From: Paramecium tetraurelia
Lineage: Eukaryota
NCBI GenBank assembly: GCA_000165425.1
Contig: CT868004.1
Span: 1 to 64,000 of the forward strand
Direction: 5' to 3'
Length of the DNA stretch: 64,000 nucleotides
Shown here: piece by piece, positions 26,709 to 55,380 of the stretch
How positions within the stretch are numbered: the first letter of the stretch is position 1
Layout of the letters: each line of letters begins with the position of its first letter
Position numbers and translations under genes: made by a program
Notes under the pieces: model-generated
Database searches by the model: none
What the model saw: only the letters and a program-made list of their open reading frames with translations
Told to the model about the DNA's origin: nothing

Positions 26709-29550
26709 ATGGATTTACGCTCAACAGTTTATCTTCCATCGAAGTAAATAAGTGAAGGAGAAATATAAGTTAAGGGAAAAACCTTAGGGAGATGGAAAAC
26801 AAAGAAGTTTATTATTGATGAAGATCAAAGAATCTTTGCATTAAAAAGCTCGTAAGCAAAAAAGAAGTTAAAGCCTTTCTACTTATAATATTACAAAGTA
26901 AGGAGGTTTACAATTTATTTAGTTAGAGGTACGAGAGAAAAAAAAAGATAAGATTTCATTTGATTTGATTTCTAAGGCAGGAGGCAAAAGTGTGACATTG
27001 GGAATCCAAAATGAATAATAAGCTAATTTGATAATCAATTTGTTGTAAAAATTGATATCGAAGGAAGATTCTATTTAGAAATAAGCATAAGAAGAATAAT
27101 TATTAAAGTCATAAATTGAATAACCCGTGGAAAATACTTAAAGTATGAATGATTTCATATTAAGATTTGGCTTATGAGAAAATAGATTATGAAATACCTT
27201 CTTTTTTCGATACAAGTGAAATTAGAGAAAAGTATAATTTGTATAGTAATTGATAAGTATTTCCTAAATAAGGAGGGGACAATAACGATTAGAGAAGTTT
27301 TAAGTGGTTTAGAAGGAGCAAGCATTCACAATTTACAAAAATGTTGATAACCATCATCAATTTGTAACTTTTATAGAATTCATGGGGGATTGTATAATGA
27401 AAATTTATAATTAGGCTGTGATTTGATAGTTCAGAATTTATCAGATAACAACAAAATAAATTAATGGAATCCATACGTGTCTCAAGCCGAGTCTATGGTA
27501 GTGAAAGAATTAGCTGAAGACAAATCCTTTTAAATATGTGAGATTCGTTAATTGACAAATCTCTTTGTATTTAAGCGAGAATTTCAATATTTAAGACATC
27601 ATCTGAAAATAGACAATATTGATTTTATTGTTTAAAAGCAGATTGATTAAAGACCAAAAACTAAATGTTATCAAGGAAGTTTGAAATACGGTTTATGGAG
27701 TATTCAATACAAGTAATTGAATTATCTCTATTTTCAGAAATAATGTGACTAAAGTGTGTTATGTGACAGAGCAATCAGTATAGGGTTTATCCTATCCAGA
27801 TGAAGATTCTTATCTCATTTAGGTGTTTTTACAATAAATTTAAAATATAAACAAGTAGTACATTTAAAAGACAATTAAATAAGACCCACCTCAAAATTCA
27901 GTTGAGATTCCTCAAATCAATAAAGCCATTATATAGGAGTAGCAATTGTAAGGAGGAGAACCTTAAATATAAAAATAGCAACCTGATCAACAATAATTAC
28001 CTTCCCAAATTAAAGTTGTTTAACAAAGTGAAAAATAGAATTAAGAAGAGGATGATTAATTTTTTGATTGTGAAGAAGAAGATGCAATAGATGAGATGAA
28101 TGACAAGTTATTTATTGTTGAAACCGTGGATAATAAATAATTGATTCAAGATGAAGTTGTAAAAGATGTTTACGAATAAAATGCAAGAAGACAATCTATA
28201 TTGCCAGTCTAAATTGATACTTAAGATAATAATGAATAAGAATGGGTAGATAAGAAAATGAAATTAGTATTATCAGGAGGTTATTGCTCACTCTCAATAA
28301 ATGTGAAACATCAATTGTTGCCTAAAGAAAAAGGGTAGAATAGATAGTTTTTGACTTAATAAGAAGGAGGACACTATATATTTAGGAAAGATTTCATTAG
28401 AGAAGATAAGAACGGGGGTTTGAAAGTCATCAATGAAGAGAAATTAGCTGCTTAAAAGGCAGTAATTAAATTTCTCATTACCAGAATTGGAGCATCATTG
28501 TTGATGGGAAAATCTATTACTGGTATATCAATGCCAGTCTCAATTTTCGAAGCTCGTTCTAATACTGAAAGAGTTTGTAGTAGTTTGGGATTTGCGCCAA
28601 TATATTTAGAGGATGCTGCTCAGTCCTAAGATATTTATTACAGAATCAAATAATGTGCAGCATTTCAATTTGGATTCATATTTATGTATATATCTTGTGA
28701 GAAAGTAACTATTATTTCTTAATCTTAGCCTTTTAATCCAATCTTGGGTGAAACTTTCCAAGGGTTTTATGACAATTGTCCAATCTATTGTGAATAGATC
28801 AGCCATCATCCTCCAATATGCGCTATTCAAATGTATGGCAGATCATATAAGTAAGTTTATGTTTAAGATATCTAGAATTGATGGACAATTGGAATTGGTG
28901 GCTAATTTTCATTCTAATTCTGTTGTTGGTAGAAATGTTGGAACCTTTAAGATTACTTTTGAAAATCCACATTAAGAGATTTTATTGACATTCGCTCCAG
29001 GTAGTCTGAATGGGACAACATATGGTGATAAAGTCCTTAATTATCTTGAAAAATAATTCATAATAGATTTGAAAAATAAAATTATATTGGAAACTACATT
29101 CAATCCTGATAAAAAATATTGCCAATATTTTGAAGTTGAATATGTGAATCAACTGGATTATTTATGTGGAGCTATTTGTGATGTGAATGATTCAGCTATT
29201 TTGAGATATTAAAAGGAAGGTTTTAGAAAATACAAAGGATTGGATTTAAAAAATGATATTAAATAGGTCAAACACAAGATTAAGGGTATTTGGATTAATG
29301 AATTGAAAGTATGGAATTAGTAATCTATCTTTAGGTTGATAATCAAAAATTAATATCTATTCAAAATGATTATCCAGTTAAAATTTAATTGGCTTAATTC
29401 CCAATACCATCAGACGCTACTTTCAGAATGGATCTTTTATGGTGGAAGTTGAGAAACTTCGATTAATCCTAGTAATGGAAGGAGAAATTGGAGATTCTTT
29501 AACGATAAGACAGAAAATTGAGAGAATAGAAGTCAAAAAAGAAAAAATGA
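26709..29550 (+). CDS. Oxysterol-binding protein-related lipid-transfer protein with PH, START-like and ORD domains
   Basis: PH-like N-terminus (GEIQVKGKTLGRWKTKKFII), START-like middle (QWNPYV...KREFQYLR...TKVCYV) and an ORD with ISMPVSIFEARS, KPFNPILGETF and the EQISHHPP signature (28792-28815). Several tiny introns; TGA 29548-29550. Confidence 0.9.
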
Positions 29551-29700
29551 TACCTTATAATGTCTATTTTGATAATTTATTTAGAGATATTAAGTTTATA
29601 TATCGAAATCTAATTGGATTATCTTTATTAACCTTCTTCACATTCAATATTAGAATAAAATAGTTATACATTTACATATTATTTAAGAATAATTATGATA

Positions 29701-32700
29701 TCAAATTAAGCTATTCTTTCTATTTGATAACTTATTAACTAGTGTTAGGATCTTCTAATAGATGGTGTTATCACTAGTTAATAGTAATTTGCATATTTAG
29801 AATGCCTAATAATTTGAATGGATTTTTACTTTAATGAACAAATCTAATCCTGTATAATCAGGGTTGAATTTATGAGTTTACTTTTCAATGAGATGGACAG
29901 CATCTTTATATACATTTTCAACAACATGAACATATGGTTTTGAATTTGCATCTATCGTTTTCTAAAATGCTAGTTTATCTCCTTCTATTTATAAATATCT
30001 AATCAAATCTTATTCATCTTTGCGATATGATTATGTCAATCTATCTCTGATTACGCGTTCTTGTGCCAACTGCTTCAGAATGTTAATTTCCAAAAATAGG
30101 AAAAACCCATGAGAACAATACTAATCAAAGTGGTACAAGAATTTCTCATTTTCTGTTATTATTGCAAGAAGAACCTCAAACTTTTCAGAAGGGTCTATTC
30201 AAATATAAAATATCTATTACTGAGTCTTGCAAGACCAATTAATGCCTCTATATACATTTTTATTATCGAAAAAACATGTAATCTCAAATATCCCAACTGG
30301 TAGAAATATCTGCAATAATCTGGATTTGAAATAGATGTATAACAGTACTCCAAAGTATTTTTGACCTTTTCTAAATATTATTAAGTGGAAACAATCTTAT
30401 TTTATACCTGGAAGTTATTAAAATATTTACAAAGAAAATGTTTGCAAAGGTTGAATATAAGCTACCTAAGTATGGATTTGATTCATATTTGAATTCTATG
30501 CAATATTTCTAATAAATTGCAAGAGATTCATTCGCTGCTTATAAAGACCATCTGCAAACTACATCATATGAAATTCCATCTCTTATTGTTTTTAAAGTCT
30601 TTATCTTACTCTTTAAAAATTGTTTAGTCTCTTGAAATTTCTATCATTAACATTATGAAACTCAATACCTTCTCCATTTATTGTGTGCATTTGTTTTTCA
30701 CTCTAGACTCCAAGTATACTCTGGTTTTTGCTGTAATCTCTTGTTTGAGGAACTTGATCTTCTTATCTGAATCTTATTACAATGCAACCTCTAAATCCTT
30801 CACTCTTTTGTTGATCAGAAACTCTGAATACATTGTTGCTATCAATCTTTATAAATGGCCATTGAAAATATGTTACAAACCATACTATTGCTGAACATAT
30901 TTCTAAGCATAGAATATTGGATCCACAGACTATATTAATATTTTAGGTTGCTAGATCAAAGACTCTATATAGGCGAAATAAGCCTCCGTTGTTAGCTTGG
31001 CTATTTCGAAATAAGGCCTCAATGCTGTTTTCGTTAATGTTTCCTCATAAGAGAACTTGGTTTCTGCAAATTACTGCAATTCATCGGACTCCTCAAATGA
31101 AATAATTTATTCAACTTAAATAGGATGATAAATCTATCAGAATTATAAATATGAATACTCTTTGCTTTTGAACTCTCGTATCATCAAACTCACTGTAAAT
31201 CCAATGAGTTTATAATTAGATATTAGTTTACTTTATTCTTTTTTAAAGCAATTTTAGCAATTTAATTGCTTTACTAGATGCAGAAGTGTAATCTGCTGTT
31301 GTGATCTCAAATAACATTAAAACATCAGTGATTAATGCTGAAATCTCATCTATATTTGATTCACCAAAGGTTTAAACGCTAAAAATAATCAATTTATTTA
31401 CAAATTTAAGTTTTATTTTGATAATTTGAAATCTCCTTTCATTATTATACACAATGCTTGCAATCCTTCTACATAAGAATAAAGCAATCGCATAAATAAA
31501 ACTTATTTCAACACTAAGAAATTTCTAACATTTAAAGCAATTTGTTTTATAGGCTCAATGTTGTGCAATAAATTGTGTTCATAATTTTCAAAATTTAAAT
31601 TATGAATGTTTAACGCTTTGAATAATTGATTAACCGATATTTCCGTAGCATTTGATTTCAAGAAAATCTTTTCGCTTTGCCAATTCAAAGCCATTCTACA
31701 AATTTCATAATAAATCAAATCAAATAACTTTCTTTTAATATTATAGGCCATAGAATCAGCATCTCTAAATTATCCCACATGCAATTGATAAACAATCAAC
31801 TTCACTCCCAATTGACACAAGGCGATTTAATTATCAAATCCTTGATCCTTATCATCAATATGTATGAATCCTGTTTAAATTTTATCCATGTCTTATTGTT
31901 CTAATTATTGGGCCAACAAATATCGATTGATATCAGAATTTGTATTCAATCTTGGTTGCTTGCCTTTCTTTTTCTTTTATTTCTTTTCTTTACTTTCCAC
32001 CAATACATTATACGCCGTCTGTATTTTCTCAAATAAATCTTAAATTTTGATGTTATCTTTTTTATCCTATTTTTCGACTAATTGCCGTAATTCTTCAGAT
32101 AGAACATATGTTCTCAATCTACTAATTTCCATTGCTAATTTTAATGTGTATTTCTCCTTTTTCAACATCTTGGCTTTGTTTTAATACAATGTAAACAAAA
32201 ACTTAATAAGTTCGTTATTTAATTCTAATTGCTAACATTTTAAGTAGAAATCCATCAATTTAATCAACAAAAATCGTATGTAAAATACCTTATGATTCTT
32301 TATAAATTACATTTCATCTAATAGCATCATCTATTTATATGATTATTAATTATTAGAGAAAAAATGATTATTAACATGGACATCAAGTATAGAAAAAAAG
32401 ATTTGTTATAAAGAGGCTGTTTATTGATCTGATATCTCTTCTTCTTTTAATTGAATTTATTACAAAAGTTCAACTATTTTAATATGATCAAAGGCCTCTT
32501 AATAATCATAGGTCAATTATAATACTCTTGTATAGAGAACCTTATTTTCAATAATTACAAAAATGTTTTAGTTTTATAATTTTTCTTGAATAATTAAAAT
32601 GTATTTTTTAATGGCCATTTACAAATCGGTAAAATGATGATGATTTTCAGATTCCACATTCTGTTTACTTAAGATGAAAGTATAACCATACAATAACTCT

Positions 32701-35700
32701 AATTTTAATTAACTAATTTTCTCATCCTAGAACCAAGTTATTTCAATAGTCTCCTACTCTTCATTATCTATTAGATATTTTTCAGTAAATTTGTACAGCT
32801 TAAGTAAACAGGAAATTAGAGATTGACTAAATACAGAGTTTGGAACATCATAATTGTAATCCAACTGATCTTCATTTTATCGGAAGTAATAAGGATATTG
32901 ATGTTATTGATTCTCAATTAGCACATGAACCAACTTGATTTAAATTATGTGACTCAATAGATTGTCATTTCCATACAGATTATGAGACTAGATCAATTGC
33001 ATAAATCCCTAATAGATTCCGTTACTCATTGCTAAAACATTATAATAAAGCAATTAAGAACAATAAAATATAGTCTAAGTTATGGCAACTTTTAGATGGT
33101 TGAAGTAAATTGTAGACTCTTTTTAGAAGCTTTCATAGATCATAAACTGCTCTTCCATCAATTAAATTATAAATCTATACACATTTTACATGTTTTCTTG
33201 CTGATCAGTTTCAGAGTAGTGTTCCCCGATCCAGCCAATCATAGGAATGAAATTTAATTGCTCCAATGCACAATTAGATTACATAATTTGCCTTACCAAT
33301 TAATAAGCGATGATTTCTGTCTGTGAAAACTCCTTATTTCTATTATAAATTAAGAGTAAAATAAACTTAACTTGATTTTCATAATAATTCAAATAAGCCA
33401 AAGATGACTTCATTAGATCTTCATTTAATTATTTATGTTTTGAACACTTCACTATTGATTTGATTACGCTCTGCTTTTCAGTGATTTTTTCATTCGAAAT
33501 AAATTGTTGCATCAATTAGATATCAATCAATAGCTCATTTGCTGTATTAAGAGCATTATTGTCAAAACTATCAAACTGCAATTATAATTAAATAAATTAA
33601 ATGTATAATCTATTCAATAGTTTAATATAGATTGAATTAGTTAACAGAAAGTAATTGCCATCCTTTTCTAAATATTTAAGGTCGTATTTGATTTCATTCC
33701 ATTGATCTGCTACTAATTTTGTGGTTGATTCAATATCAATTTAATACACACTGTGAAGATTGCATATCAAAGAAGATAAAATTTGCATTTGAAAAATATA
33801 GACTCTGATATGATGAGAAAATGATTTCATAAATTTTGATGACTTATAATCTTCCTTTTGTAATTGTAAAAGATTGAGAATATGATTTTAATCATTTTTA
33901 AACTTTTCCTAAATCACAGGGTTTTTTTCAGATTAGCTGAGCTGAACAACTTCATTTATTATTTCTTCAAAATCATTTAAGAGGTTGGTTAATAATGTAC
34001 ACTATTTCATACCAAAATCCAATCGATTCATATAAACAAAAAACATAATTTTGTATTGAAAATAGAAGATAAAATACTTGAATTCATCTAAATTATTCTA
34101 AATTAATTTCACAATGTTGGATTTAAAATAAACTTGAAAATGACTATAAAAGTCAGACATTTCTTCTTAAGATTATTCAATAGAAGTAAGGAAGTACTTT
34201 TGAATGAGAATTTCCTCAAAATCCTATGACATTTCATCAAATTTTTCGAGTTGTCCCAAAATCAGATATTATTCAAATGAAAAAATAGCCTACTTTAAAA
34301 ATGACTTGATGCATATAAAAACTTGAGTTGTAGATTGTCCTCCATTTAATTCATCTAATATATTTTCATAGAAAGTTGGGCAAAATCGTTTTTATTTCAA
34401 TAGTTCTAATTCCTCATCGAAGTTTTAGTTACTTAGGCCATTCTCATGAAATAAACTTCTACCTTAAAATTTAGCTGCCATTACTGAAGGGTACAATCTT
34501 AATTTATAATCTGGATGCAACAGCTACATTATTAATTAACTCGAATTGGGATAATCATGTATCAATTGATTCTTGTTATTCATCATCCATTTTCTGACTG
34601 TAAAGCCAACATCTCCATCATATTCTTATAGTGACTTTTCCGCATCCAACTTCATTTATCCAAGTGTGACCATCTAAAGACTTACCATTCCTAATGAGTA
34701 GATGTCACATTTCTATGGATTTATTGGTAATTAATTATTTGGTTTGAGATAGTTAGTCAACAATTCTGGACTCATATACCATAATTCATCATTTTATTAT
34801 ATAGATCTAATGAAATAGGTTCTTTCAGTATTGAGATCATACCAAAAGAACATTCCAAAATCGAGGACTACATATTATAAGGATTTTGACTTATCAGTTC
34901 TCTCAATTAGAATGAAACTATCCAAATTTAGCTAACCATGAAACATACCCATATTGGTTTCTAAAAAATCCAATAATTTAATTGTTGAAGTGATAAAGTT
35001 CGAAATTTCATTGTCTGTATATTTTGTTTTCCTTTCCTTTATGACATCCTTGAGAGTTTTCCCATTACAAAACTTAAAATTTTTAGGAGGATTATAGGCT
35101 CTGCATAAATAACCTTTAACTAATGGATCCCGTACATTAAAGAATTGGGGTTGTTTTTAAATTTTCATATAGCTAAGTTTGGCAATTCCTATAGGTAAAT
35201 TCAAGCTTGAATAATCAGGTCCCTCTACAATATCATAAAATCGATAGACCCTATTTATGAAATCCTTAAAAATGTTCCTATTATATGCTATATCAGTTGT
35301 GTAATAGAGCATGATATCATCTCTTTAAGGAACGTCGACATAAGACATTAGCCACCTTTTAATCTGAGGTTATAGACCAAATATATTTGTATGAATATTG
35401 GAAGAAAATTAATCCTTCTTTTTATCTATCCTATAGAGTAGATTGATTTTGGGTTGAGTTTACCTTATCTATTCTTCAACAAACAACTCCCAAATCTACA
35501 TCTAATTGAGTTTTAGGAATGGAGCTTGAACCCTAAATGGAATATATGAGAAGTTCATAATCCTATTTTGCTTTCTCAATTCATTTGTGATATAATTATC
35601 TAATTAATATTCAACTTAACTAACTCCTTTGGATGACAACATATAAATGTAATGTTCTTTATGTCTTATTTACATGGAGTCTAGAAGCGAGATTAAGGAT

Positions 35701-38700
35701 GTGGATGAAAATTTCTTAAGTTAGGTTTGTGATAGATTGCAAGTCAAATTAAAAAATTATTCATCTATAGGTTTGAATTTGGTATCCTTTTTGGTTTTAT
35801 TTGAATCTTCTGCATGCTCTTTTTACTAATCCTAGATATTCTCTTCCATAGCCTTATTCTCATTCTCACAAACTTTCTTGTACTTTTCCAAAATTCGATA
35901 ATAACTTTCAGCAACTTTCACACCTGATACCTTGCTCGTACTTTTCCTAAATTGCCCAAACCACACTCCACCTGATCTTAAAAATACTGTACTACGACCA
36001 TCAATCCATACATGTTTTTTCACAAACTCTTTTTTCTTCTTTAAAATTTCCATCTTTTCAACAACATTTTATTAAATATCTTAATGCTTATTAAGAAAAT
36101 CTAATTATTTCTCATACTTCTTATTTTGTTATTATTTCAGGGATTTCTTGAGTCTTTTATCTCCTTCTTAGAATATCAGGTACCTTCTCCAATCCAAATT
36201 CCTAATTAGAACCAAGGATCTAGGTAAAAAGAACTTTCTATATGTATATCTATCAAGTGTCCATTGTTTCTAATGAGGGTTGAGCTAATCTTTCATTTTC
36301 AGATAGCTCAGTGTCTTCTAAAAGAAGATTTTTTACAGCAATTATTATTCTTTATCCTAAGTATCTTTCATCTTAAATTTCATCGCCCAATTTGATATTC
36401 TGGCATTGAAGTAATATTACAATTCCTCTATGGATGACTCCTTATTACTTGCATCTTGCAGTAACTTTAAATTTTAATTTTCTTCTTATTCTTCATTTTC
36501 TTCCACATCTTCATTTTCTTACTAATTTTTTGATTTAGCCTTCTTCTCAACCTTAGGCTTTACCTTTTTCTTTTCATGTTTAACACCCTTTACTTCTTCC
36601 ATTCTTTTCACATAATCTTCAACATCTGAATCTGAACTCAATTCCACTATTTCCTTTATTTTTACATCCTTCACCTTTGTTCCATAAACTTTTAGAATCG
36701 GATACCGTTTTAAGCTTCTCGGATTTATGGCTTTGTTTGACGATCGTTCTGCCGATCCTCTGAATTTCTCAACTGTATTCTTAATTAAGTATGCTTGTCT
36801 TTGCAATAAATCCTAAATTTAAAATGGTAATTCGCTAAATAATGTCATTTCCACGAATCTCAAAAAGAAGTTAGCCAAAAGGCAAATCAAAAAGAACCCT
36901 GACATTTAAATCAAGGCATCAGCAGAAGTAATATCATCTCTCTTAGCAGTTATCTAACCACTATTTACAACTAATGACAAATAAGCTAATCCATCTAAGA
37001 CTCTATTCCAGACTCCAATAGTACTCTCACTAATTGGAATAGGCCTCTGCATTTCATTTAGCAATTTTAACTTATCACATTACAATTCTAACAAACTTCT
37101 GAGGAAGGCTATTAAATAACTAAGCGGGAATGTTGTTCCAAATAAAACAAGCATTGAGTGTTGAATAGCTATTTCCATAAAATCATCTACTGTTCCATAT
37201 CTCTCAGGACTGATCACATAGGATTCTTTGTCGAAAAACTCTAAAAGATTTATTTACACATCAAATTACATTCTTCAATGAAATCATTTATTAAATGAAA
37301 TGGATCTTCCTATTTCTTTGCCTACTCACTATCTTAATCATCCAGAATTTAATCTTAAATCTAAAGATTTATTTAATTATCTTGAAAGAATTAGAGCTTC
37401 TTCTCAGGAGGTTGGGAGATTGATTCAACTTGTGGACTTTTCTCGCTTGATTTAAATTGGTTTGATGGATTTGATGAGTGTGAAAACTGTTTTTTCATTT
37501 AATTTGATTTCAAAGGATCTATACTTGGTTTTAGAGAAATTTTATTTGATCCAGAGGCCTTATTTGTATGGGTGTTTTGTGATTTTGATTGATGCGAATT
37601 TACATTGAGATTTAGATGAGTATATTTTGTATCACTCCTTTTTGGATTTTTTATTTTAAGATACAAATCTTTGAGAAAATTAAATACAAATATCCTGGTT
37701 TTCAAAAAAACATTGATCAAGAACTGGAGTATAAACATAGTTGCAAAATGATAACATGAATGTTTCAAGCAATCACTATGAGCACAATGTAAGCCAAATT
37801 TCTAAAATTAGCAATATAAATAATTTTTACAGTATGAAGGAATTGTATCTCTAGAATGGGAACACATAAAGCAAAAAAGCACAAAAAGAACTTCTTGTAT
37901 ATGAAATTGGCCTCGTACATTTTTATTGTTTTGTGATTCTCATAATCTGTTAAGGCAATTGCTAATCTATCAAATACTGTGTCCAGCAAAAGCACAAGTA
38001 TCAAATTTATCAAAGCTGGCACAGTGACTTCAAATAGAGCAGTCGAATATCCAGGTTCTGTAAAGGTATCTACGTCTTACAATGCATCAGATATTATAAA
38101 AATAGAAACTATTATTCCAACGTATAATATAACCATTAGAAATAAAAAGGCAAAAGACACGATTTTTTTCATAACTCTTTATAAATCTGAAAAGAATAGA
38201 ACATTTAAATTATCAGTTTCAATTGAACGTGAATAGTAACCGTAAAATTATGATCTTTATTAAGTTGTATCTTCTCCAGATTAATTAAATTGACCAAATT
38301 ACATGGCAAACACCTTCTCCTTCGTTTACCACATATCGTGAATTAAATTACTCCACTAGATCTAAATAAACCCAAAAATTATATATAAATAAACATAAAG
38401 TGAACTTTTAGTATCACTAAAAATAAACTATATTATACTGATAGTTAATCCTAGAATACCAATTGGAAATAGCATTGATGCATTGTAACCAACAAAATGG
38501 AAATATATGGCTAACTTTTCACCGTAATATTCTCGAATTTATTTGGTAGGTACAAACCAAGGGTGATTCCATTGAAATCTCCATTGGAATGATAAATTTT
38601 CAAGTTTTCTTTCAGCAAATTAGTATTCTTGATTCTAATATTTGTTTTAACCGATAACACCTAGATAATTCCTTTCAGCCATTTCTTTATAGAAATACAG

Positions 38701-40934
38701 AAATAAGGATTTATTCTTTAAGATTTCAATATTGTAATCTGATTTGAAAATAGGCACAAAGAATTTTCGCTTACTCTTCCCTTATATTTCATAATTATCA
38801 TGTAAACAATACTTTGCCGAAACAAATTTATCTGAAATCAAGATTGTAAAATTAATCTTTTCATCCAGAGCTAAATTATTAATTTTTATTCTCTCCATAT
38901 TTGAAAATAATGAGATCTTACCCGTCTCTGTAACACAATACTATTTCCAAATAGCATTTAATTTACATTATTGACTCTTGGCCAACTTATCCGAAGTAAT
39001 CTTATAAGTAATAAATGGCTCAAAAGGAGCTATTTCAGCTAGATCCCAAATAGTCTTTAGTTGTTTAATACTTCCTAAATTTGTGATGTATAATGCATCT
39101 TAAAACAAATCTAAATATGACTTAGCTAATTGTTCTTTCTTCAAAACCTTTACATCTTTAGAAGAAATAAATTTATTTGAATTGATATTACAAATGCCCT
39201 TAATTTAATCATAATATTTCTATTATTTTCTATGTTCCTGTATGATTTGAAAAATACCATGAAAAACCTCGATGAGTTAGATATTCCTTCCATTTAAATC
39301 TATCTGCTGTTCAATTTCTGATTCCTTTTAAATTTATTCTAGAATTTGAATATCCTGGCTGTTGATCTAGTCTTAAAATTAGAGTTTGTCTGGGTTTTTT
39401 TCCATATATATCTCATAAGGCTTTTTGCTTTTGGTATTTTTATTGAAAAATTAAGCAAATTCATCTTGAATAACAGATTGACTTCTAAGATGAGTAATCT
39501 TCTCCTCTAAGTACATTAAATAAGCATAATAGGCTTTCCAAACTTCATCAGAAGGTGCATAATCGTCAATAACCTCTTCATCTCCTTAAGAAAAAATCTA
39601 TTGATTAATCATAGATTGATTGATCTCCCTTGAGACTTATTTAAAGTTAATTTTTTCCAGCAACTCCACAATTTTTGGTTTTAAATAAATAAACATTTTT
39701 GTTAATTCACCTTTATAATCATTATTGGATTTCCATAGTCTGTTGTTTAGTCTTAAAGGTCTTAGGTTGTCATCTACAGGTTCATAAGAGAAAATATCTT
39801 AGAATTAAAAGTTCAATTGTTTGGTGATCTCATATTTATTAGCCAAATTCTTTAGATTTGAATCTGCTTAGTACAAGACTAGAAAGATGGTTGAACCATC
39901 TTTGGAGATAAACTATCTCATTAAGAATCCCAACTTACTCATTTACAAGATCACAGCTAATCTTATAAGAGTACTTAAATCTTTGGTTTGATTTTCTGTA
40001 CGAACCCAACATTTGTCTTTTTCATTGTATTCTAGAAACTTACCACCACTTAATTTAATTCTAATAAATCTGTCCAACTTATAATTGTCTAAATTAAATG
40101 CTTCTTTGATGGCTGTTTGTCTTGTCTTTCTGTCTAAATTGTAGATCTTTAGTAATTTAAGTTCCAATTTCTCAATTTCATCACTAAACAACTTTTATAC
40201 TCCCCCAAATCTTTTTAAGTTCTGAAACCTTTCTCTCTTTACATTTTTCTTACCTTCATTTTTCTCTTCTGTATCCAAACGGTTAGATTACTCTTGGACA
40301 TTCTTCCTATGGCTTGACTCGTCACTTAGTATTTACTCTTATTCTTCTCTCATTCTATCCTCTTCTTCATATTGTTTTAACAAAAACTCATCATCAGATT
40401 GCAAATGATATAAGTTCTATTCAATAGCCTTAATTAAAATGAGGTTATCCATCACTTCAAACTCTGTAGCATACTTATTAGATGCAAAACAATTCAAACA
40501 TAATTAAATTGCTTCTAATTAAGTCATTGTTCCTAAGTCTTCACTTTTGGGACTATCAGGATTTGGAAAGCTAATATTGATTTAACTATTTACGCAATAA
40601 CTACATCTCCCATATGATAGTCATATTCTGTTAAATATTAGTACTTGTCTGAAAGCTAATTCAATCTTGTCTGAGTTAAATTGCCAAGAAACATTTTCAA
40701 GTCATCTTATTCCTTATCAGATAATTATTAACCACCAAGAAAGTGCAAATAAGAATTATAAGTCGCCATTAATTTCTCTGCATACAGAGTCTTTTTCTTT
40801 TGTGCCCTTACAGTCTTTACCTACCTCTATGATGAGAACAGATTATCTGATTCTGATGAATCGTCACTCGATTTTGATTGATTTCCTTCTTCCTCTATTT
40901 CCTCGAGTTTGTAATACTAGTCTTTGGCTGTCAT
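29701..40934 (-). CDS. Giant anoctamin/TMEM16 protein fused to a pseudokinase domain and a long helical/TPR-like C-terminus (~3,675 aa)
   Basis: ATG 40934; introns 40571-40593, 37802-37830, 37241-37269, 31379-31401, 31134-31158, 30641-30668, 30408-30430, 30195-30220; TGA 29701-29703; spliced length 11,028 nt, divisible by 3. Anoctamin motifs IREYYGEKLAIYF, LTDYENHKT, DDFMEIAIQ, LELQCDKLK and RPIP...IGVW. Kinase-like motifs HGQLNLDS, DFG, YMSPE and DIYSLG. Confidence 0.85.
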
Positions 40935-41345
40935 TATATAAATATTATAATGTATTTCAAAAACATATAAAATAGTCAATGTTTTTTTTTGTTTTTATTC
41001 TCTCGATTTGAAACCCTTCCATCAAACTACTGAATCCAGCATAGTAACAACACTTTAGAATTAGAATTCTAATTGTCTTCATGATAATTTAGATAATTCT
41101 TATTTTCTAAGTTATCTACTCTCAAATTGTTCCAATAATTTCATAATATGACTTAAACAACAAATATTTAATCATAAACTAGGATATCAATTAAGAAAAT
41201 AATCAGTGTTTTAGAAAATAACAGCAAAATTGATAAATTGATTAAAATAACTGAAATTTTAATCGGTTTATTTCTCATTATATATAAATCGAGTTTGTAA
41301 GTTATTTGAGTCATTATTAAAATAACTAATCAACTTGTCTTCACA

Positions 41346-41907
41346 ATGTACAGATACCTATCAAACGAAATTGGATTCAAAACAACAACAACCTTGATGA
41401 GCTCATTAAAGATTGTTGCCAGGGATTTAACAGACATTCCAGCAATTTCTGTTTCCAAACTGAATCAAGATGAAGTCAGTCATGCTATCGATATCCACCA
41501 ATTAACTTGGTCACAGAGTGTCGATACTTCCAAATTAATTAGAGAATATAAATTCAATAGCTTCAAAGAAACATTCGTCTTTATGGGTTCTGTTTCATAA
41601 ATAGCCGATTAGATTAAACGTATATTTAATTGTTAATGTTGTAGATTTTCCAAAATGGACTCAAAAAGGAAGTGTTTTAAGAGTAGAAATGACAACTCCA
41701 GATTGTTAAGGAGTAACAATAAAGGATTTATTCTTGGCTTATACAATGGATAAGATAGCTCATAACATTTCAAACTAACCTGTTGAGAATGTATGTGACA
41801 TTGTTAAAATCCAATCCACTCAATTACTAAACACATGGAATTCCAATTATAGTAGATAAGAGGAAGTGAAAACATAGGAGTTCCAAAAGAACATCCTATA
41901 ACTGTGA
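41346..41907 (+). CDS. Pterin-4-alpha-carbinolamine dehydratase (PCD/DCoH)-like protein with N- and C-terminal extensions
   Basis: LIREYKFNSFKETFVFMGSVSQIADQIKHFPKW...VEMTTPDCQGVTIKDLFLAYTMD matches the PCD fold pattern. One 25-nt intron 41620-41644; TGA 41905-41907. Confidence 0.8.
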
Positions 41908-42080
41908 TTCATTTATATATATATTTACAATTGCTTTAAGTTACAATTTAACCCACATTCCACCTTGTTAGAAGTGATTCTTAGGTAGATATAAAAAAAT
42001 TGAAAGCGTTATTTATTTTCCTTTTAATTATAAAGTTTTTGTTTACTCTAAAATTCTTATTAATTACCATAATTAATTAT

Positions 42081-43199
42081 ATGCTATCATCCATTTTAAC
42101 TTCTGGAAAATAGACTAAGAATTAAATCAATGACCTATTTTCAAAGCAAATAGAGATCGTAGAAAAGTAAGTAGAATCGAAATCCAAAAATAAGGTTGAT
42201 TAAGAAGAGGACAATGAATAAGGAGTCCAATAAACTCAAGAAGATAAAGAATAAATGGATGCGGATAGAATAAAGAGAACTTTATTTGTAGGCAATGTGA
42301 GTATCAATGCTAAAAAAAACGATATGAGAAAACTATTCACCTAATATGGCGAGGTATATATATAAATGTATAATAATTAGATTGAAAAAGTTTGGTTTAG
42401 ATCAATACCTGTGGATAGAAAAACAAAGAAGGAAAATGTCAAACTACCAGTGAGAGCTGCAGTCCTGATGGGCAAGATATAAGAAGGAGCCTAATCTTAG
42501 AATTGCTATATACTATTTAAGGATGTGAAATCTGCAAAATCAGCAACATAATAAGATGGTCAATTATTTATGAATCTACATCTGAGATGCACCTTAGAAG
42601 GACAAAAGAAAGTAATTAACTAAACAATCAATAGAAAGATCACATTAAAACAGCCTTTGTTGGTAATCTCCCATTTGATATTGAAGAAGAAGAAGTCAGA
42701 AAAGCATTCGAGGAAGCCTTTGGAGAAATCAATTATGTTAGAGTTATCAAGGATCCCTAAAGACATGTCGGAAAAGGATTTGGATATGTTTGTTTTAATG
42801 AGTTTCAATCACTAAAGAAAGCTCTTTAAGCATAATCTATAGAAATCAAAGGAAGAGAAGTTAGAATCAAGAAAGCAGCTGAGACAACTAAAAGAGAGGC
42901 TAAGGAATTAAATAATGCCAAAAATGCATTTTAGAGGATCCAAAAAAAATAATAGATCTCATAAAAAGGAAGGAAACCAAGAAGTAACACACAAAACAAA
43001 GAGTAAACCTAAAATAAATAAGAAAAATAATAGTTCAGAGTATAAATACACAAGAAGATTAAGAAGTTGAAAAAGAAGAGAGTATATTATTTATTTATTG
43101 ATTTAGTACAATCCTATGGAAATCAAAGAGTAAATTAGCAATATTAAAACATAGAGGAAAACACAAGTTAAAGATACTAACATTTTCAACTAGTATTGA
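42081..43199 (+). CDS. NOP12: RBM34/Nop12-like nucleolar two-RRM protein
   Basis: RRM1 RTLFVGNV...IEKVWFRSIP, with the family-typical insert before NCYILF. RRM2 TAFVGNLPFDIEEEEVR...YVRVIKDPQRHVGKGFGYVCF. Lys-rich tail, three tiny introns, TGA 43197-43199. Confidence 0.8.
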
Positions 43200-48232: not shown

Positions 48233-48466
48233 TTTTGTTATTTTTAATTATTATATTTACAAATCAATGATTTTTAATATAAATATATATCAAATATATA
48301 ATGAAGTTATATTAATTCCAAACAAAATGTCTTATTCAAATTATTAACTCTCTTATACTGAAAAACTAAATTCATTTAAACAACATCCCCGATGTGAAAT
48401 AAGTTCTTATGTAAATGTGAGTATCAATAGAGTTATTTATAATATTTATTCCATTATTAAATAAAG

Positions 48467-51400
48467 ATGCAAATTACTCAAACTTAATTATTGGAATGGG
48501 TAAAGGATGGAAACAAGGTGACTTTGAAGAAACATTTCGAGGATGAGTTGAAGTTTTCTCAGAATAAGTTGCACGACTTTTTTGCAATGGTTGATGATTA
48601 AAGAAGAAATGTTGTGCATTGGGCTGCCTATTTAGGATAGTATAAATTGTTAAAGTGGTGGTGCAAGAAATACAAATTGATGATTGACTTGAACAAAGGG
48701 GATATGCATTCTTACACTCCCTTAGAATTAGCAAGCATCAAAGGGTATGTTTCTATTTCATTTATTCTAAAGGTATTCTGGAGAGTATAATCCAGAATAA
48801 CAGGAAAATACGATCAGATTATTGCTGGATCATGGGGCCCAAATACCATAGTCTAACACCTCCAAACCAAATCCTTTGCATTGGGCTTTTTATTACGGAA
48901 ACAAAGAACTTGTAGATTTTCTAATCTCAAAAAAATTTCAACTCCAATTAGAAACGGATTAATAAGGGAACTATCCCATAGATTACTTATTTTTGGAGAA
49001 CAGACCCGATTAATACAAGTATAATTATATTTATTAACTAAAAGAAAAGATGTTAGTGACATATTTGAAAATGTCATAATTAATTATGCTTAGGTAACAA
49101 CCAAGTAAACCTTGAACCGAAAACTGAAGAAGAAAAAGGTTAGACAACCTAATCGGAAAAAGAATAGATAATTTAAGGAGGAAAAACCACATTAAGGTAC
49201 AATCGTCATGAGTTAACTTCCATTCATTTAAACATAGGGAAAAGATGATGAATCCTCCCCTGAATCTGAACCTTCTAAGAATGGGATACCATATTCCAAT
49301 ATATCGAATTATCATAGAAGCCAAACCTCAAACTCTTTCATTTCGAAAAATACTCTCCCCAAAAGTAGTCAAAAATCAACTCAGAATTAATAAATTCTAA
49401 ATAAGTTTCAACAAAGAAATTGCGGCTAGAAGATATAATCAAAAAACCTAGATGAGATAGCTGATGTTCCTCTCTATGATGACTCTCGAATTGAAATGAA
49501 GGAACCCGAAGAAGAGAAAATACCAGAAATAAAAATATTCAATCAAAATCCAAGAAACCCCAATTCTTAAAAACTCATTCCAGAAAAAAACCAAGAAAGT
49601 CAATTCAAAGCAGACCAATGCAACATAATCATAAGCTAACCTCCTACCATACTATTTAATTAAGAGACCTCGCCTTAAAAAAATTTTGATCACAAAAAAC
49701 GACATAAAAGCAATAAATTTAAGTCTTAAAATGAAGAAGACATGGAAAAAATTCATCTGAAAGACTAGGACAAGTACTTCATTTATCATAGCAATGCCAA
49801 TCTAACTAAAAATGAGACTTATGAATGTCGGTTACAGTATTGGTCTGCCAGACAGGGTAACACAGAGTTTCTTATTTATTTCCTAAAAAGGAGATGCAAT
49901 CCTTTTCTCAATGTCTATTAGGGTTTCAACTGTCTTCACATAGCTGCTTTCAAGGGGAAACTTAAAATATTAAAAATCATACTCCAAGCAGAATATGAAT
50001 ATTATGATTATTCTGGAGAGAGCAATCACAAAAATAAAAAGTAACTAAAGGATCAAATCTTCAATAAGGTATATAAATTATAATTACTTCTTAGAAAGAA
50101 TGCATCAATATCCTGACAGATTAAAACCCATCTAATGCTCTACATTTGGCAATTGAATAGGAGAAGTATAAATGCATGAAAACATTGATCTTGCATGGAG
50201 TATCTGTCGACACTGTGAATAGCAGATGTCTCAAACCTTTCGAATTGACTTTCAACCAAGATATCATGGAATATTACAAGGAAAACATTCAGACCAAATA
50301 GCAAATGAGTAGTTTGACTGAGTTGGGATACCAGTACGTGATTTAAACAAAGGGCACCTTAAGTGTTGAATAGGATATTGTATATCTGCAATTACAAAAT
50401 ATTCGACAAACCTTTAGAGATAGAGGGTGGAGTTTTGAGTTTATGATATTTCATGCTCCTGATCTGGATAAACTTGAAATGTACAATGACAGCGCTTAAG
50501 CCAAAAAGGTTAAGTCTCTTTATCATTATTATGTGTTGAAATTGCCTCCTGATTCAATCTATAAATTAGCAGATTTATATTAGATATCATGTTACAATTT
50601 CTAAACAAAAGTAAATTACATCTATAATTTAAGTATATCTGTCAATTTGATTATGATAATAGGGGGTTTTTTGAATTCCCAAAAGATCTACAAGTGCAAA
50701 TGCTCATTCTAAATACACTCAATGATGAATTCGATGTAGATAAATTTGTCTTAGAGAAATTGATAATTGCTCATTATCCTTTGGAGGATATTTAAAAGTG
50801 CGAGAAGATCACTTAGTTCTGGGATGAATAGTAAAATAATTGCATCCAAGATTCGATTCGATATGAAACACAATAAATTGCATTGAGACCATTGCATGCT
50901 ATTGCCTCTTATTTTGGCCCAGTTGTTGCATGGTACATAGCCTTAAATGTACAAATTATAGGGTGGCTGATGATTCCCTCAGTGTTTGGAGCAGCTTTGG
51001 GGATTTACATCATCATAACCAAGGAAGTGAAGTATGAATATTAAGGGAATATGTTAGTTCTTCAATAGTTCCTTTTTATGCATTACTAATGACACTCTGG
51101 TCTACATTATTCATGGAGAAGTGGAAGAACAGAGAATCTGAATTGAAGTTTTGTTGGGACATGCACAAATTTAGACAAACTCAACCCTAGAGAGTGATGT
51201 ACACAGGGTAGTACATCATAAATGAGGCAACGAATAAGATTTAGATATACGACTACTTTACAACTTTTAAGAGAAGATTGATTGCAGAGGGACCTGTAAT
51301 TTTGATAGGAATAGCAATAATTGTGGTAAGTTTTTACGCGTTTAATCTTTGGTTACGATTATGGAAGGGTACTACTATAATGCCGATAGTGATTAATTCT

Positions 51401-52318
51401 TTAAATGGAGTGTCAATGACAGTGTTTTGTGATTTGTACAAAAGACTGTGCACATCTTTGGTAACATGGGAGAATCACATGTACGAGTCTGAACAGGAAT
51501 ACTCGTACATTTTGAAGGTGTTCCTATTTGAATTTCTAATATCATATGTGTCTGTGGTGTACGTGGCAATATTTGAGAGTGATGCTTCTCAATTGAGTGT
51601 GTCAGTCGCTAGTATTATCATAACGAGGGGAGTGATCTCAAATGTGACGAGTAACTTTTTGCCTTACTTCTTTTTTAAACAAGAGAAGAAGATGTTTTCG
51701 GATAAGTTCTTCGAATTCAAGAGAATATTCTAATTGAAATCAGCAGAAAAGAAACAGGTTCATAATATTTGCAATTCCAAGTTCAGCACTGATAGACTGA
51801 ATTCAGAAGTACAACTGCGCTTTCTGTAGGAGTTAGAAGTAGGTCGGATTAAGCAACCTTAGAAGGTTCTTTATGATGAGTACACAAGTATTGCAATTCA
51901 GTTTGGATACACAACTATGTTTGCACCCACTTTCCCAGCTGCGCCCTTATTTTTTATGATCAATTGTTACATCAATTTGAGATGGTCAATTTATAATTAT
52001 CAACACATTCTGAAGAGGGAACGGGCGTAGGCTGCAGATTCAATTGGGATTTGGCTGTAGATTTTTGAAATAATGAATTATTGCGCCACATTTATGAATT
52101 GCATTGTTATTGGGACTGTTAATAAGGAATAATTTAAGGGGATTATCGGGAATTAGAATGCCCTTGTTAGTGCTTTCTTCCTTGCTGCTATTGAACATGT
52201 CTTGTTGCTTATTAAATACATTCTTGATGTTTCAATTCCTGATTGTCCTTATTGGGTGGAGAAGGAACTTAGAAGGTATGCATACTTAGAAGAAAAATAC
52301 TCGAAAAATAACAATTGA
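48467..52318 (+). CDS. Ankyrin-repeat anoctamin/TMEM16 family protein
   Basis: Ankyrin-like repeats (NVVHWAAYLGQ, TPLELASIKG, NPLHWAFYYGN, NCLHIAAFKGK, NALHLAIEQEK) followed by an anoctamin domain (PLHAIASYFGPVVAWY, EKWKNRESELKFCW, LVTWENHMY, QFGYTTMFAPTFPAAP, ADSIGIW, IPDCPYWV). TGA 52316-52318. Confidence 0.88.
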
Positions 52319-52377
52319 TGTTTAATTTATTTGTTTTATATTTAATATCAATATAATAATAATATTCTAAATTACTC

Positions 52378-53883
52378 ATGGAGGAACAAGAGAAGTGTTA
52401 TGAGGAACTTTGTATTTCAATTGTTGAATCATAGACGATAACCAAAAGCATTATTAAGTAAATTCTGCATGGAAGTCAGACCATCATTGTCAACAAACAC
52501 ATAAACTCTATCTTGCCTTTACTAGGATACAATTGGTTCAGAGAATAGGTTATCGTACTGATGGATGAGTATAATTTGAGAAATGACGATTTTGAAGAAA
52601 ACGTAATCGAGGACTCTGAACCTATAGCTGTCAACACAGAACATTGGAGAAGATGTCAAGGTCAAGTCAAATAAGTTACATCGAGGGAAAACTCCAAATC
52701 TCCTACGATTAAGAGAAGTGATACAAAAAGAATGTCTAAATTGGTAACCATGAAAACCTCCAGACAAAGTGAGTGCTTCAATTCCCAGCTCATCAAAATG
52801 GGCGAATTGGAAGAAGATCAAGAATTTGATCCCAATATTGAAAGCATTAGATAGGCTAAACTAAGATAAATCTCAATTCAATAATAAAAAGAATAGAATG
52901 ACAAAATTAAAATCCTCGAAGTCCAAGAGTAAGTCAAACAATTGAAGCGATTGAATGTGGATTCCAAATCCAAATACACCTTCGATTACGAAGGCAAGGT
53001 TGTTGTCCAGAAACCCCCAGATATTGATAGATATCCAAAATCATTCTAAAATATCAGTGAAAAACGAAGTTTAGTCGAAGTCAGAGATCTCATCCCAAAT
53101 CACAAGATGCAATCGGAACTCATACAATTAACTAGTAAGAACAACCAGAATATTGGCTAAAATAACCAATTTGCCATCAAAACATCAGTCCCACAAATTG
53201 ATTTAATTATCATGAAGGAAGGTGTTACCTTCTATGATGGCAAACAAGAGAAGAAAAAAGATAGAGTGCTTCCCTTGATGGATATCAAAGACCCGCTCTA
53301 ATTACAGTAAACATTGTAAAAATAAAATGTACAAATGACTAAATTAGAATACTAATAAATTACTAGCACTTCATCTAATAATAATACATTCTAAAATAAA
53401 ACTATGAGTCTTTCAAGTTATTAATAGTAACAACAACACTAACTTACAAATAGATCTTAGCAATAAAATGACAATTTATTAAATATGAATGACAGTCTCT
53501 TAAGTTAGAGAGTCCCCAAAAATCTAACTACGATGAATCATTCTATCTCCTCCTCGATCTTGCAAAGGTTGAATGGTTCCATATCCATTTTAAGTGAATA
53601 ATAAATTGAGGAATTGCTTGTTCCCTAAACTGAAGGGAATAAGGATCAAAAGGAACACCCTTTGTTTCTGAAAAGAAAGAAGACAGAATTAGATGTGAAA
53701 CCCTCGAAATCTGTGCCAACTCTTACATTTGATTTGCCGTAGATCCCTCCAAACATACTATCTAATACATTAAGTAAATTGCCTAAATCATTTCAAAGTC
53801 AAGGCACCTTTCCTAAATTAATTCCCAAGTTTCCCAGACAGAGGATTTCTAAATAAGCTATTCAATTAAAAATCGAAACATGA
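52378..53883 (+). CDS. Hypothetical protein (~501 aa, apparently intronless)
   Basis: ORF from MEEQEKCYEEL to KIET-TGA, 1,506 nt. Contains EDSEPIAVNTEHWRR and KYTFDYEGKVVV segments. Confidence 0.75.
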
Positions 53884-53908
53884 TCTATTTCTATATCATA
53901 TTATTAAT

Positions 53909-55380
53909 ATGATTATATAATAAAATGAAGAACAGGAGATGTTTCAACAATAAGAGTCCAATGACACTGAGTAAAAATTAAAGAGTTCCTATGTATCGAA
54001 CGAATATCTTGAAGCTGGAGGTGGTAGTCCACAAAACTCAGTCGATTTGAAATAATTCAAGGCTCCTTAAATCAATCAATTACCCAAAGTCATGGTTAAT
54101 GCAAGCAGCTAACAATCAATTCCTATGAGTTCTCAATTCAGATATCAAGAGGATTAGCAATCCTAAAAAATTAAGACTGGACCCAGTGATCAATCCAAAA
54201 TAACACCTGGCTACACCAAATACATGATTGAAGACTCTAATTAACAATATGATTATGTGAGGGGCATGTTCACTGAGGATGAAATCAAAGAGGCATTCAA
54301 TTTCTTAGACATGAATAAAGATGGAGGTATTACATCTGAGGATCTCTCATTCTTCTTGGATTTCATTGGAGAAAAGGCAACTATTGAGGAAATCGAAGAA
54401 ATGATAAGAATGTGTGACAAAGATGGAAGTGGAGAAGTAAAATTTGAAGATTTTAAAAATCTAGCTGGAGGATGGTCTTTGCCAATCTTAGGTTAAGCTC
54501 ATCCACCAACAAAAGAATTAGTGGAAAAGCGTTCTTAAATCAATCAAACCATGATGGAAAAGGAGGTCCAAGAAGTTGCCAGAAAAGGTAAAATAACACC
54601 TCAGATGGTTGAACATATTAGAAAAAATGAATTAACCAGTCCAAGATTTGGCCAAGATGAATAATCCAAACTTATGTTCTAGTCAATTAACAACATAGCA
54701 TCCTAAAAGAAATAGCGACAAGTTATAGGGTAGAATCTCAAGGTAATTCGATCTGATGAAGGTTAAATAACGTAATAAACCAAATAAAAATCATCTCTAA
54801 GTCAAAGGGAAATCATGCTGTAAAGAAAAAACAACGCAATAAGATTTGTGAAGGAGAAGAAAATCGATCAAGCTTATATATTAGATGTCTTTGAAAAAAT
54901 TAATAAACTTGATATTATGGAATCTTGTACTTACGAGGATTTCATACATTATCTCGACATTCTAGATAGTAATAATAAAACAATATTAAAGATCACCAAT
55001 CAAAATTGCTGTTTAATTCAATGAATGAAAATCCAGTAAGAGAAGAATATGTGAAAAGTTCGGATAATGTCATTGTTGATTAAACTGTCACTTTAAAAAA
55101 CACTCTTCTTACTTTGCTAGGTTAAACTAACTGTAGAAAACACGACAAACTTGAAATAGCTTATTTACTCTAAGATTCTAATCAGCAAGGGTATATATTC
55201 TTAGATGATCTGATTTCTTTACTAATCAATTTGTATTGCATCTCAGAGGTGGCAATAATTGAATAAAAAATATTGAAAATGACTGCCAAAAAAGGTTTGA
55301 AGAATAGAAAGGATACAATAAAAAAAGATATCTATATTAGTATGGTAAATGAATATGGATAAGTGTTTGAGCCAATCTGA
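53909..55380 (+). CDS. EF-hand calcium-binding protein
   Basis: Calmodulin-like EF pair (DMNKDGGITSED, DKDGSGEVKFED) and a further C-terminal EF-like loop (DSNQQGYIFLDD). One ~23-nt intron near 54970; TGA 55378-55380. The start could instead be the second in-frame ATG near 53939. Confidence 0.85.

Follow-up and report, generated by a model that had tools for sequence, protein, structure and literature searches.

The locus at positions 29701..40934 of a 64,000-nucleotide stretch of Paramecium tetraurelia DNA (assembly GCA_000165425.1, contig CT868004.1, positions 1 to 64,000; hereafter "the window") raises the question of whether one gene can join a channel- or scramblase-type membrane core to a kinase-like domain and a very long helical tail, and what such a tail may do. 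Research on TMEM16 proteins, also called anoctamins, treats them as Ca2+-gated channels and as lipid scramblases; they have 700-1,000 residues. An initial annotation, made from the letters of the window, described the locus as a single gene in which a TMEM16 core is followed by a kinase-like fold and an extended helical region, and this layout is upheld by the reading frame, by conservation and by the public gene model. The product is a giant protein of about 3,670 residues, in which a TMEM16/anoctamin core is extended by a long cytosolic tail that contains a catalytically dead kinase fold and about 1,500 residues predicted to be helical. It is highly probable that this fusion exists as one protein.

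The gene lies on the minus strand, starts with an ATG at 40934, ends with a TGA stop at 29701-29703 and has 11 exons, as determined by tblastn and an exon walk. The span proposed by the initial annotation is exactly that of the public gene model. By tblastn and a codon-by-codon walk, the coding sequence (40934..29704) is 100% identical to the P. tetraurelia protein referred to here as P0025, and the exon walk of P0025 yields 10 introns of 23-31 nt each, the usual intron size in Paramecium. P0025 is XP_001427057.1 (GSPATT00030295001, UniProt A0BM92), an uncharacterised protein of 3657 residues deposited as "unnamed protein product (macronuclear)". UniProt calls A0BM92 "Protein kinase domain-containing protein" and lists Pfam Anoctamin in the entry. 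Sequence and two-domain label are thus already public, and the anoctamin-kinase layout is not newly seen here; it is deposited but unstudied. The initial annotation knew of no functional description of such a protein, and a literature search, with bioRxiv supplements outside its reach, likewise turned up no published account of the giant protein or of any anoctamin-kinase fusion.

Cluster look-ups return 13 giant gene models (2962-3671 residues) from five species of the P. aurelia complex, which form three paralog groups. Group 1, which includes this gene, has members of 3657-3671 residues in four species, and group 2 has members of 3553-3568 residues in five species; UniProt names both as kinase domain-containing. 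Group 3, also from five species, comprises proteins of 2962-2963 residues and one 1333-residue model, and is named for its anoctamin part only. One homolog from each group was aligned to this gene: the group 1 ortholog P0026 (P. pentaurelia, 91% identical), P0027 of group 2 (P. primaurelia, 46%) and P0024 of group 3 (P. octaurelia, 27%).

The DNA of the window is rich in A and T (GC content 0.23-0.34), and it has long open frames only with the ciliate code, in which TAA and TAG encode glutamine. TGA is then the sole stop, so long open frames arise by default, and gene prediction could have merged two neighbouring genes, one for an anoctamin and one for the kinase-like and helical parts. The exon 37240-31402, which the initial annotation had singled out for its lack of in-frame TGA over about 1,945 codons, is indeed free of TGA over all 1945 codons, while the other two frames contain 62 and 95. 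The 480 codons leading from the anoctamin to the kinase part likewise have 0 TGA in frame and 15 and 17 in the other frames. An upstream gene would need a TGA to end, and its absence from this exon makes two genes unlikely. Paralogs that are 27-46% identical overall also preserve the protein sequence of the intervening linker: 92-98 of 100 residues are identical to P. pentaurelia, and 34/93, 61/100 and 34/78 are shared with the 46% paralog. The same layout recurs in all 13 models from the five species, even if the models of the sibling species may come from one prediction pipeline. Furthermore, no stand-alone copy of the tail was found in searches of shorter proteins and of a representative library.

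RNA reads bear on the same question. Three stranded oligo-dT runs labelled as the same species were mapped to 28800-42000. From 29682 to 41147, all reads have the orientation of a minus-strand transcript, and the two flanking genes give reads of the opposite strand. Some depth is present in 24/30, 26/30 and 27/30 bins of the three runs, and all three linker bins are covered in every run (depth 0.26-0.8). Over the gene, depth ranges from 0.04 to 3.4 and peaks at the 3' end, a pattern that oligo-dT priming would produce on an 11-kb mRNA. A fourth RNA library, available as contigs only, contains a gap-free contig over 34865-36947, from the last transmembrane helix (TM10) into the kinase part. In another of its contigs, the last nine letters match the end of exon 2 exactly and are joined to 37801 (junction 37831/37801), which means that intron 37830-37802 has been spliced out. 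These data fit one long transcript but are no proof of it. For two merged genes it speaks that the RNA depth is too low to follow one continuous molecule; against them, read starts or ends do not pile up anywhere within the gene. Taken with the frame and the conserved linker, a merger of two genes is very improbable.

The public model needs a correction just ahead of TM7. In place of a single 29-nt intron at 37241..37269 on the minus strand (GTA...TAG), XP_001427057.1 removes two atypical introns, 37269-37239 (31 nt) and 37217-37190 (28 nt). The peptide QFFDKESYVISPERYGTV just ahead of TM7 is kept in P0026, P0027 and P0024 when the three homologs are aligned, and the same conserved peptide (SYVISPERYGT) is encoded in frame by the window once 37269-37241 is removed. 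Its presence in three homologs implies that the public model is mis-spliced and has lost 10 conserved residues, which the revised intron restores to the gene model. The exon start at 37240 given by the initial annotation was therefore right.

The same intron is the source of another explanation, in which regulated retention of 37269-37241 yields mostly a truncated TM1-TM6 product and the full fusion is rare or absent. An RNA-library contig covering 36920-37801 is spliced at 37831/37801 and nevertheless keeps 37269-37241, and with this intron retained the frame stops at the TGA at 37214-37216. However, the intron has the usual GTA...TAG ends and the usual size, contigs can blend spliced and unspliced reads, and the library may contain pre-mRNA or DNA. 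The retained copy may accordingly represent intron retention, pre-mRNA or a mixed assembly. Moreover, clear purifying selection acts in the 13 homologs on TM7-TM10, on the Ca2+ ligands and on the entire tail, and selection downstream of the intron requires translation past it. A predominantly truncated product has very little probability, and the full-length fusion is preferred.

The membrane core occupies 36795..38538 of the minus strand, interrupted by the introns 37830-37802 and 37269-37241 and by an inserted loop. It is the Anoctamin/TMEM16 transmembrane domain, TM1-TM10 (PF04547): spliced P0025 matches the profile over its full length, 1-460/460, with 272.1 bits (gathering cut-off 28), and P0026, P0027 and P0024 do likewise. 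Among the unspliced open reading frames (ORFs) of the window, the match is divided between 37768-40620 (profile 1-227, E 4e-41) and 31392-37274 (profile 322-460, E 6e-29). Against the PDB, the family profile finds TMEM16A, TMEM16F, TMEM16K and fungal scramblase chains at E 1e-39 to 1e-15. On sequence grounds, the first ~1,350 residues are thus a complete TMEM16/anoctamin, in line with the initial annotation. A hydrophobicity scan, which is unreliable for helix counting, marks seven distinct strong segments, all at residues 809-1321, and no hydrophobic segment beyond residue 1321. TMEM16 proteins are dimers with both termini in the cytosol. This topology, together with the lack of hydrophobic segments after residue 1321, places everything downstream in the cytosol. 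By analogy with the family, the entire tail of ~2,300 residues would lie in the cytoplasm under the core, with two tails per dimer.

Ahead of the core stands an N-terminal cytosolic region of ~790 residues (38539..40934, minus strand; exon walk), which contains a 23-nt intron at 40593-40571. The middle of this region is kept in all three paralog groups: in alignment block 301-400, identities are 93/100 with P0026, 60/100 with P0027 and 50/99 with P0024.

The initial annotation called the protein Ca2+-responsive, a claim that the residues of TM7 and TM8 favour and that TM6 makes less safe. The acidic residues of TM7 and TM8, DDFME (D..E) and LELQCD (E...D), are encoded at 37074..37184 of the minus strand. 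In the alignment to mouse TMEM16A (chains 5nl2_A/5oyb numbering), E702, E705, E734 and D738, which we take to be Ca2+ ligands, correspond to D, E, E and D in P0026, and the residues of the window are identical. The reported retention of these residues is thereby substantiated. At TM6, the window encodes N-V-F-L-K (37700..37714, minus strand), as read from the DNA, the homolog alignment and the family profile. The consensus n-i-l-e of the family profile aligns to N651-L-F-E654 of TMEM16A; this profile was used for TM6 because single-protein phmmer searches against the PDB left that helix unaligned. In this gene and its orthologs, the asparagine is kept and followed by V, F/Y, a two-residue gap and L-K, whereas P0027 has N-I-W-E-I. 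The residue equivalent to E654 is therefore missing from group 1, or a non-acidic one stands in its place, and it is kept in the P0027 group. Inspection of DNA and protein finds no D or E at the end of the TM6 helix in this gene. The Ca2+ site is accordingly incomplete in this lineage, which lowers the claim of Ca2+ gating. Some TMEM16 members lack parts of the Ca2+ site, and the loss at TM6 does not bar membership of the family. In group 3 (P0024), the acidic pair of TM8 is also replaced, by Q and K. As the initial annotation had noted, a long low-complexity loop separates TM6 from TM7 (37298..37660, minus strand; homolog alignment and composition). It is rich in K/S/Q/N, consists of ~120 residues (K 14%, S 14%, Q 12%), is shorter in P0027 and is nearly absent from P0024.

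After TM10, the protein continues with a charged K/E-rich linker (36417..36794, minus strand) that includes the conserved acidic serine motif SSDSDVEDY. The description of this part as a charged linker is accurate for the K/E-rich stretch, but the part is not a mere linker, as it also holds a conserved basic block at 35904..36416 (minus strand) with a net charge of +23 in 171 residues. In alignment block 1501-1600, which lies in the basic block, identities are 98/100 with P0026, 61/100 with the 46% paralog P0027 and 25/98 with P0024. Groups 1 and 2 share the motifs SNWAMKFK, IRNLDWRR and WIDGR...GVWF..RKST, which have diverged in group 3 to SNWA followed by a two-residue gap, IKNLDQRK and WLNCR. 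No Pfam family matches the block at E<=10, and the ESM Atlas holds no look-alike (best score 0.76). Judging from its conservation, the basic block is a domain of no recognised family and not a spacer.

A kinase fold was initially placed at about 35350-34480. Its C-lobe is confirmed at ~35075-34461, and the rest of the fold is left without support. The C-lobe (34461..35075, minus strand) is recognised by Pfam Pkinase, by an AlphaFold2 (AF2) model, by Foldseek and by phmmer. An isolated segment of 400 residues matches Pkinase at E 8.2e-10 (39 bits, cut-off 31.7; profile 78-253/263). In the AF2 model, built from 16 aligned sequences, the predicted local confidence (pLDDT) is mostly 70-94 at residues 230-432 of the piece. 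A Foldseek search of the PDB yields 226 matches at E<=0.001; among the matches listed, all are protein kinases, with KSR1 first (ranks 1-3), and phmmer against the PDB also gives a weak KSR1 match (E 2e-4). The region before the C-lobe (35076..35903, minus strand) may hold a diverged N-lobe, given that the Pfam match begins at profile position 78.

The label "pseudokinase" in the initial annotation finds its support in the catalytic loop, HGQLNLDS (34917..34940, minus strand). Aligned to the KSR1 loop H-K-D-L-K-S-K-N, the catalytic Asp is replaced by Gln (Q781, a TAG codon), the Lys by Asn and the metal-binding Asn by Ser. The replacement of all three residues defines a pseudokinase. The loop begins with HGQ here, HGC in P0026 and HGS in P0027, and is deleted in group 3. 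Among environmental fragments that cover the column of the catalytic Asp, H-G is present in 7/7, and G or N occurs at the Asp position in fragments. The DFG motif (34854..34862, minus strand; homolog and KSR1 alignments) is kept, in the form LDFGMF, as are an APE-like SPE (YMSPE) and DIYSLG. We read the kinase-like domain as an old, conserved pseudokinase, and the fold is likely to be inactive, going by its sequence.

These retained motifs are also what would support an atypical active kinase or an ATP-binding switch, in which case the protein would be a channel- or scramblase-enzyme that phosphorylates itself or its partners. Groups 1 and 2 are alike in the domain (57/100 identical in alignment block 2001-2100), the N-lobe is not resolved in the AF2 model, so that a nucleotide pocket is conceivable, and some kinases without canonical residues still bind ATP or catalyse. 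Nevertheless, three residues of the catalytic loop are replaced together, and the Asp position varies (Q, C or S, and G or N in the fragments) as a position no longer needed would. The glycine-rich loop and the beta3 lysine are unmatched, as the Pfam alignment starts only at profile position 78. KSR1, itself a pseudokinase, is the nearest solved protein in both sequence and fold, and paralog group 3 dispenses with the catalytic loop altogether. An active enzyme is hence unlikely, and the pseudokinase is the preferred identity of this domain.

Two side observations concern the loop. Four short environmental fragments (P0004, P0007, P0015 and P0017) are 26-48% identical to the C-lobe and share the H-G loop and the VKGY and SPEL motifs. 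By their sequence, such fragments hint at a wider family of this pseudokinase type in the DNA of uncultured organisms, probably ciliates. PDB 6ka4_A (F22L4.1 protein; E 0.006), which ranks third among the solved sequence matches, has the loop H-G-E-L-N, which is near the H-G-Q-L-N found here.

The remainder of the tail, ~1,528 residues encoded at 29704..34460 of the minus strand, crosses six small introns and is predicted to be nearly all alpha-helical. An AF2 model of a 1011-residue piece shows ~48 helices, and the helical region is conserved: 68 of its alignment columns do not vary among 13 proteins. The initial annotation described about 1,500 helical residues with tetratricopeptide (TPR)-like segments near the end. 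The helical part of this description stands at low model confidence, and the TPR part does not. No Pfam family, TPR included, matches at E<=10 in a 1030-residue helical piece or in three pieces of the terminal exons, and self-BLAST of residues 2130-3657 returns the self hit only and no internal repeat. The TPR reading of the tail is rejected on account of these two negative results. Of the expected combination of Anoctamin, kinase-like and TPR domains, Pfam scans thus return Anoctamin, the kinase-like domain on the isolated segment only, and no TPR. Elsewhere in the window, residues 2223-2414 have a weak tblastn match at 58916-59563 on the plus strand (22% identity, E 6e-4), which may be compositional.

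The best explanation, and a fairly probable one, is that one gene encodes one very large membrane protein with a TMEM16 core and a docking or regulatory pseudokinase tail. Besides the retained intron, several observations weigh against it. RNA depth is mostly <1x, with no splice joint at the reporting threshold and no single or long read across the whole fusion, and the RNA-library contigs show no internal joints, from a library that may contain DNA or pre-mRNA. The sibling-species models were probably produced by similar pipelines and do not count as fully independent. Pkinase is reported in one of three scans of window pieces and is missing for the 1961-residue ORF and for a 651-residue piece; it is also absent from a scan of four full-length proteins at E<=0.01, and the full-length family profile finds no kinase in the PDB at E<=0.1. 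The N-lobe has no Pfam match and a pLDDT <50 (residues 1-223 of the piece), and DFG is retained, which keeps ATP binding conceivable. Finally, the helical model is of low confidence (mean pLDDT 41.8; predicted template-modelling score 0.27), so that the term "scaffold" relies on secondary structure and conservation.

In the proposed mode of action, the TMEM16 core would be a dimer that moves lipids and/or ions across its membrane. The tail would have no phosphorylation activity and would serve, like the pseudokinase KSR, as a scaffold for docking and regulation that holds partner proteins or cortical structures beside the core. TM6 is the helix that normally moves when Ca2+ binds to TMEM16 proteins. 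The loss of its glutamate and the long loop right after it suggest altered gating in this lineage, and the tail may take over part of this gating. For the tail to be a scaffold or regulator of the core, the chances appear evenly balanced. The protein is a lineage-restricted TMEM16 variant whose tail is most likely a scaffold rather than an enzyme.

Compared with mouse TMEM16A, TMEM16F, human TMEM16K and the fungal nhTMEM16 and afTMEM16, the protein shares the full-length Anoctamin match and the acidic residues of TM7 and TM8. In contrast to them, it is about four times longer, with a 790-residue N-terminal region, a post-TM6 insert of ~120 residues and a C-terminal tail of ~2,300 residues, and its TM6 glutamate position is not acidic. 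Of the solved TMEM16 chains matched, 0/20 have a kinase domain by name. For the kinase-like part, the nearest known proteins are KSR1 and KSR2, since KSR1 is its best solved match (sequence E 2e-4, fold rank 1-3) and the kinase folds of both are of the scaffold type. Identity is, however, ~13-20%, the KSR loop has H-K-D in place of H-G-Q, and KSR proteins are soluble and have no TMEM16 part. TRPM6 and TRPM7 also combine a membrane transport protein and a kinase-type domain in one chain, which is an analogy only. Their kinase is an active alpha-kinase, a different class, and their membrane part is unrelated to the one described here; no Pfam scan of gene pieces or full-length proteins gives an Alpha_kinase match. 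SCYL1, ULK4 and Vps15 likewise have a long all-helical region behind a kinase or pseudokinase fold. Unlike in those proteins, helical repeats are not detected in this tail, and the analysis gave no sequence or fold match to them.

The yeast protein Ist2 offers another parallel. It is a TMEM16-like scramblase of the endoplasmic reticulum (ER) whose long cytosolic C-terminal tail tethers the ER to the plasma membrane and recruits Osh6/7, according to three reports (PMC12617493, PMC8282664, PMC12618243). Both proteins extend a TMEM16 core by a long cytosolic C-terminal tail; the holding of partners is described for Ist2 and would apply here by inference. The Ist2 tail is described as intrinsically disordered, whereas the tail here is predicted, at low confidence, to be helical and has a kinase fold. 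No sequence relation between the two tails was found. The Ist2 type of lipid-binding polybasic patch is terminal, and the +23 basic block of the giant anoctamin adjoins the membrane core instead. Tethering by this tail is only an idea.

How far the family extends was examined in several libraries. Word-indexed searches returned 1 near, 3 longer and 6 shorter proteins (fragments of 51-114 residues), all from Paramecium or from short contigs, and thus no relative outside Paramecium, although an indexed search needs shared 5-residue words and distant ciliate relatives may escape it. Neither these searches nor the representative library gave a stand-alone copy of the tail. A 1200-residue tail piece has 21 matches in the representative library at E<=0.001, of which 18 are <=184 residues long; the three longer ones (861, 259 and 431 residues) are ordinary or tandem kinases. 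The short matches are environmental open frames broken by the ciliate code, as large libraries consist mostly of fragments translated with code 11. Since most matches are such broken frames, they carry no information on architecture outside Paramecium. A scan of metagenome contigs with the C-lobe gave 37 pattern matches, 0 of them confirmed. One candidate, a Stentor anoctamin with a PKG orthology label (eggNOG; 10.64898/2026.07.23.740246), was set aside: it is described as having an anoctamin domain and nine transmembrane helices only, with no evidence of the same fusion.

Within Paramecium, the three paralog groups differ in what they have kept. Group 2 retains a full Ca2+ site together with the pseudokinase, and group 1 has lost the TM6 ligand. 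In group 3, the ligands of both TM6 and TM8 have disappeared, as has most of the kinase core. All three groups have the basic block and the helical tail, although in group 3 these have diverged strongly. From their sequences, the groups look like stages of one theme.

The window also contains genes of interest beside the giant anoctamin. The plus-strand gene 27721-29550, which converges on its 3' end, encodes an oxysterol-binding-protein relative (ORP; Pfam Oxysterol_BP, E 1e-20). An ORP gene beside an anoctamin recalls the recruitment of the ORPs Osh6/7 by Ist2 in yeast, but the neighbourhood is probably due to chance. In all three raw-read runs, a minority of the RNA reads of this neighbour carry 29053 A>G and 29071 G>A, which may be strain variants. 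The divergent neighbour at 41334-43067 (plus strand) is very highly expressed, with a contig word depth of 4251-10538 in one RNA library; its read ends pile up at 41334, and it has a weak RRM match (E 1.6e-5). A second anoctamin lies at 48398-55021 on the plus strand, where the ORF 51038-52315 matches Pfam Anoctamin with 279 bits (profile 44-459). The ORF upstream of it, 48398-50113, encodes ankyrin repeats (E 3e-10), and the one downstream, 53699-55021, an EF-hand pair (E 5e-10). If the three ORFs are one Ank-anoctamin-EF-hand gene, Paramecium anoctamins would carry extra domains repeatedly.

A more far-reaching possibility, which we regard as quite doubtful, is that the Ca2+ switch has been partly dismantled and that opening is controlled by the protein's own tethered pseudokinase-solenoid tail. 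The protein would then sit anchored at the Paramecium cortex as a protein-gated scramblase or channel. If this were true, a candidate site would be, for example, the contacts of the alveolar-sac Ca2+ stores with the plasma membrane, and the three paralog groups would represent a stepwise hand-over from ion gating to protein gating. The family was seen in the P. aurelia complex only, the sequence is already public, and all statements on function are inferred. Apart from yeast Ist2, to our knowledge, little is known of how extra cytosolic parts steer TMEM16 proteins, and this locus is a natural case of a TMEM16 core that carries a pseudokinase together with a very large helical tail. RNA interference by feeding, tagging with green fluorescent protein and electrophysiology are routine in Paramecium. 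Three sister versions with progressively eroded Ca2+ sites provide a comparison for the effect of a pseudokinase scaffold on a scramblase or channel.

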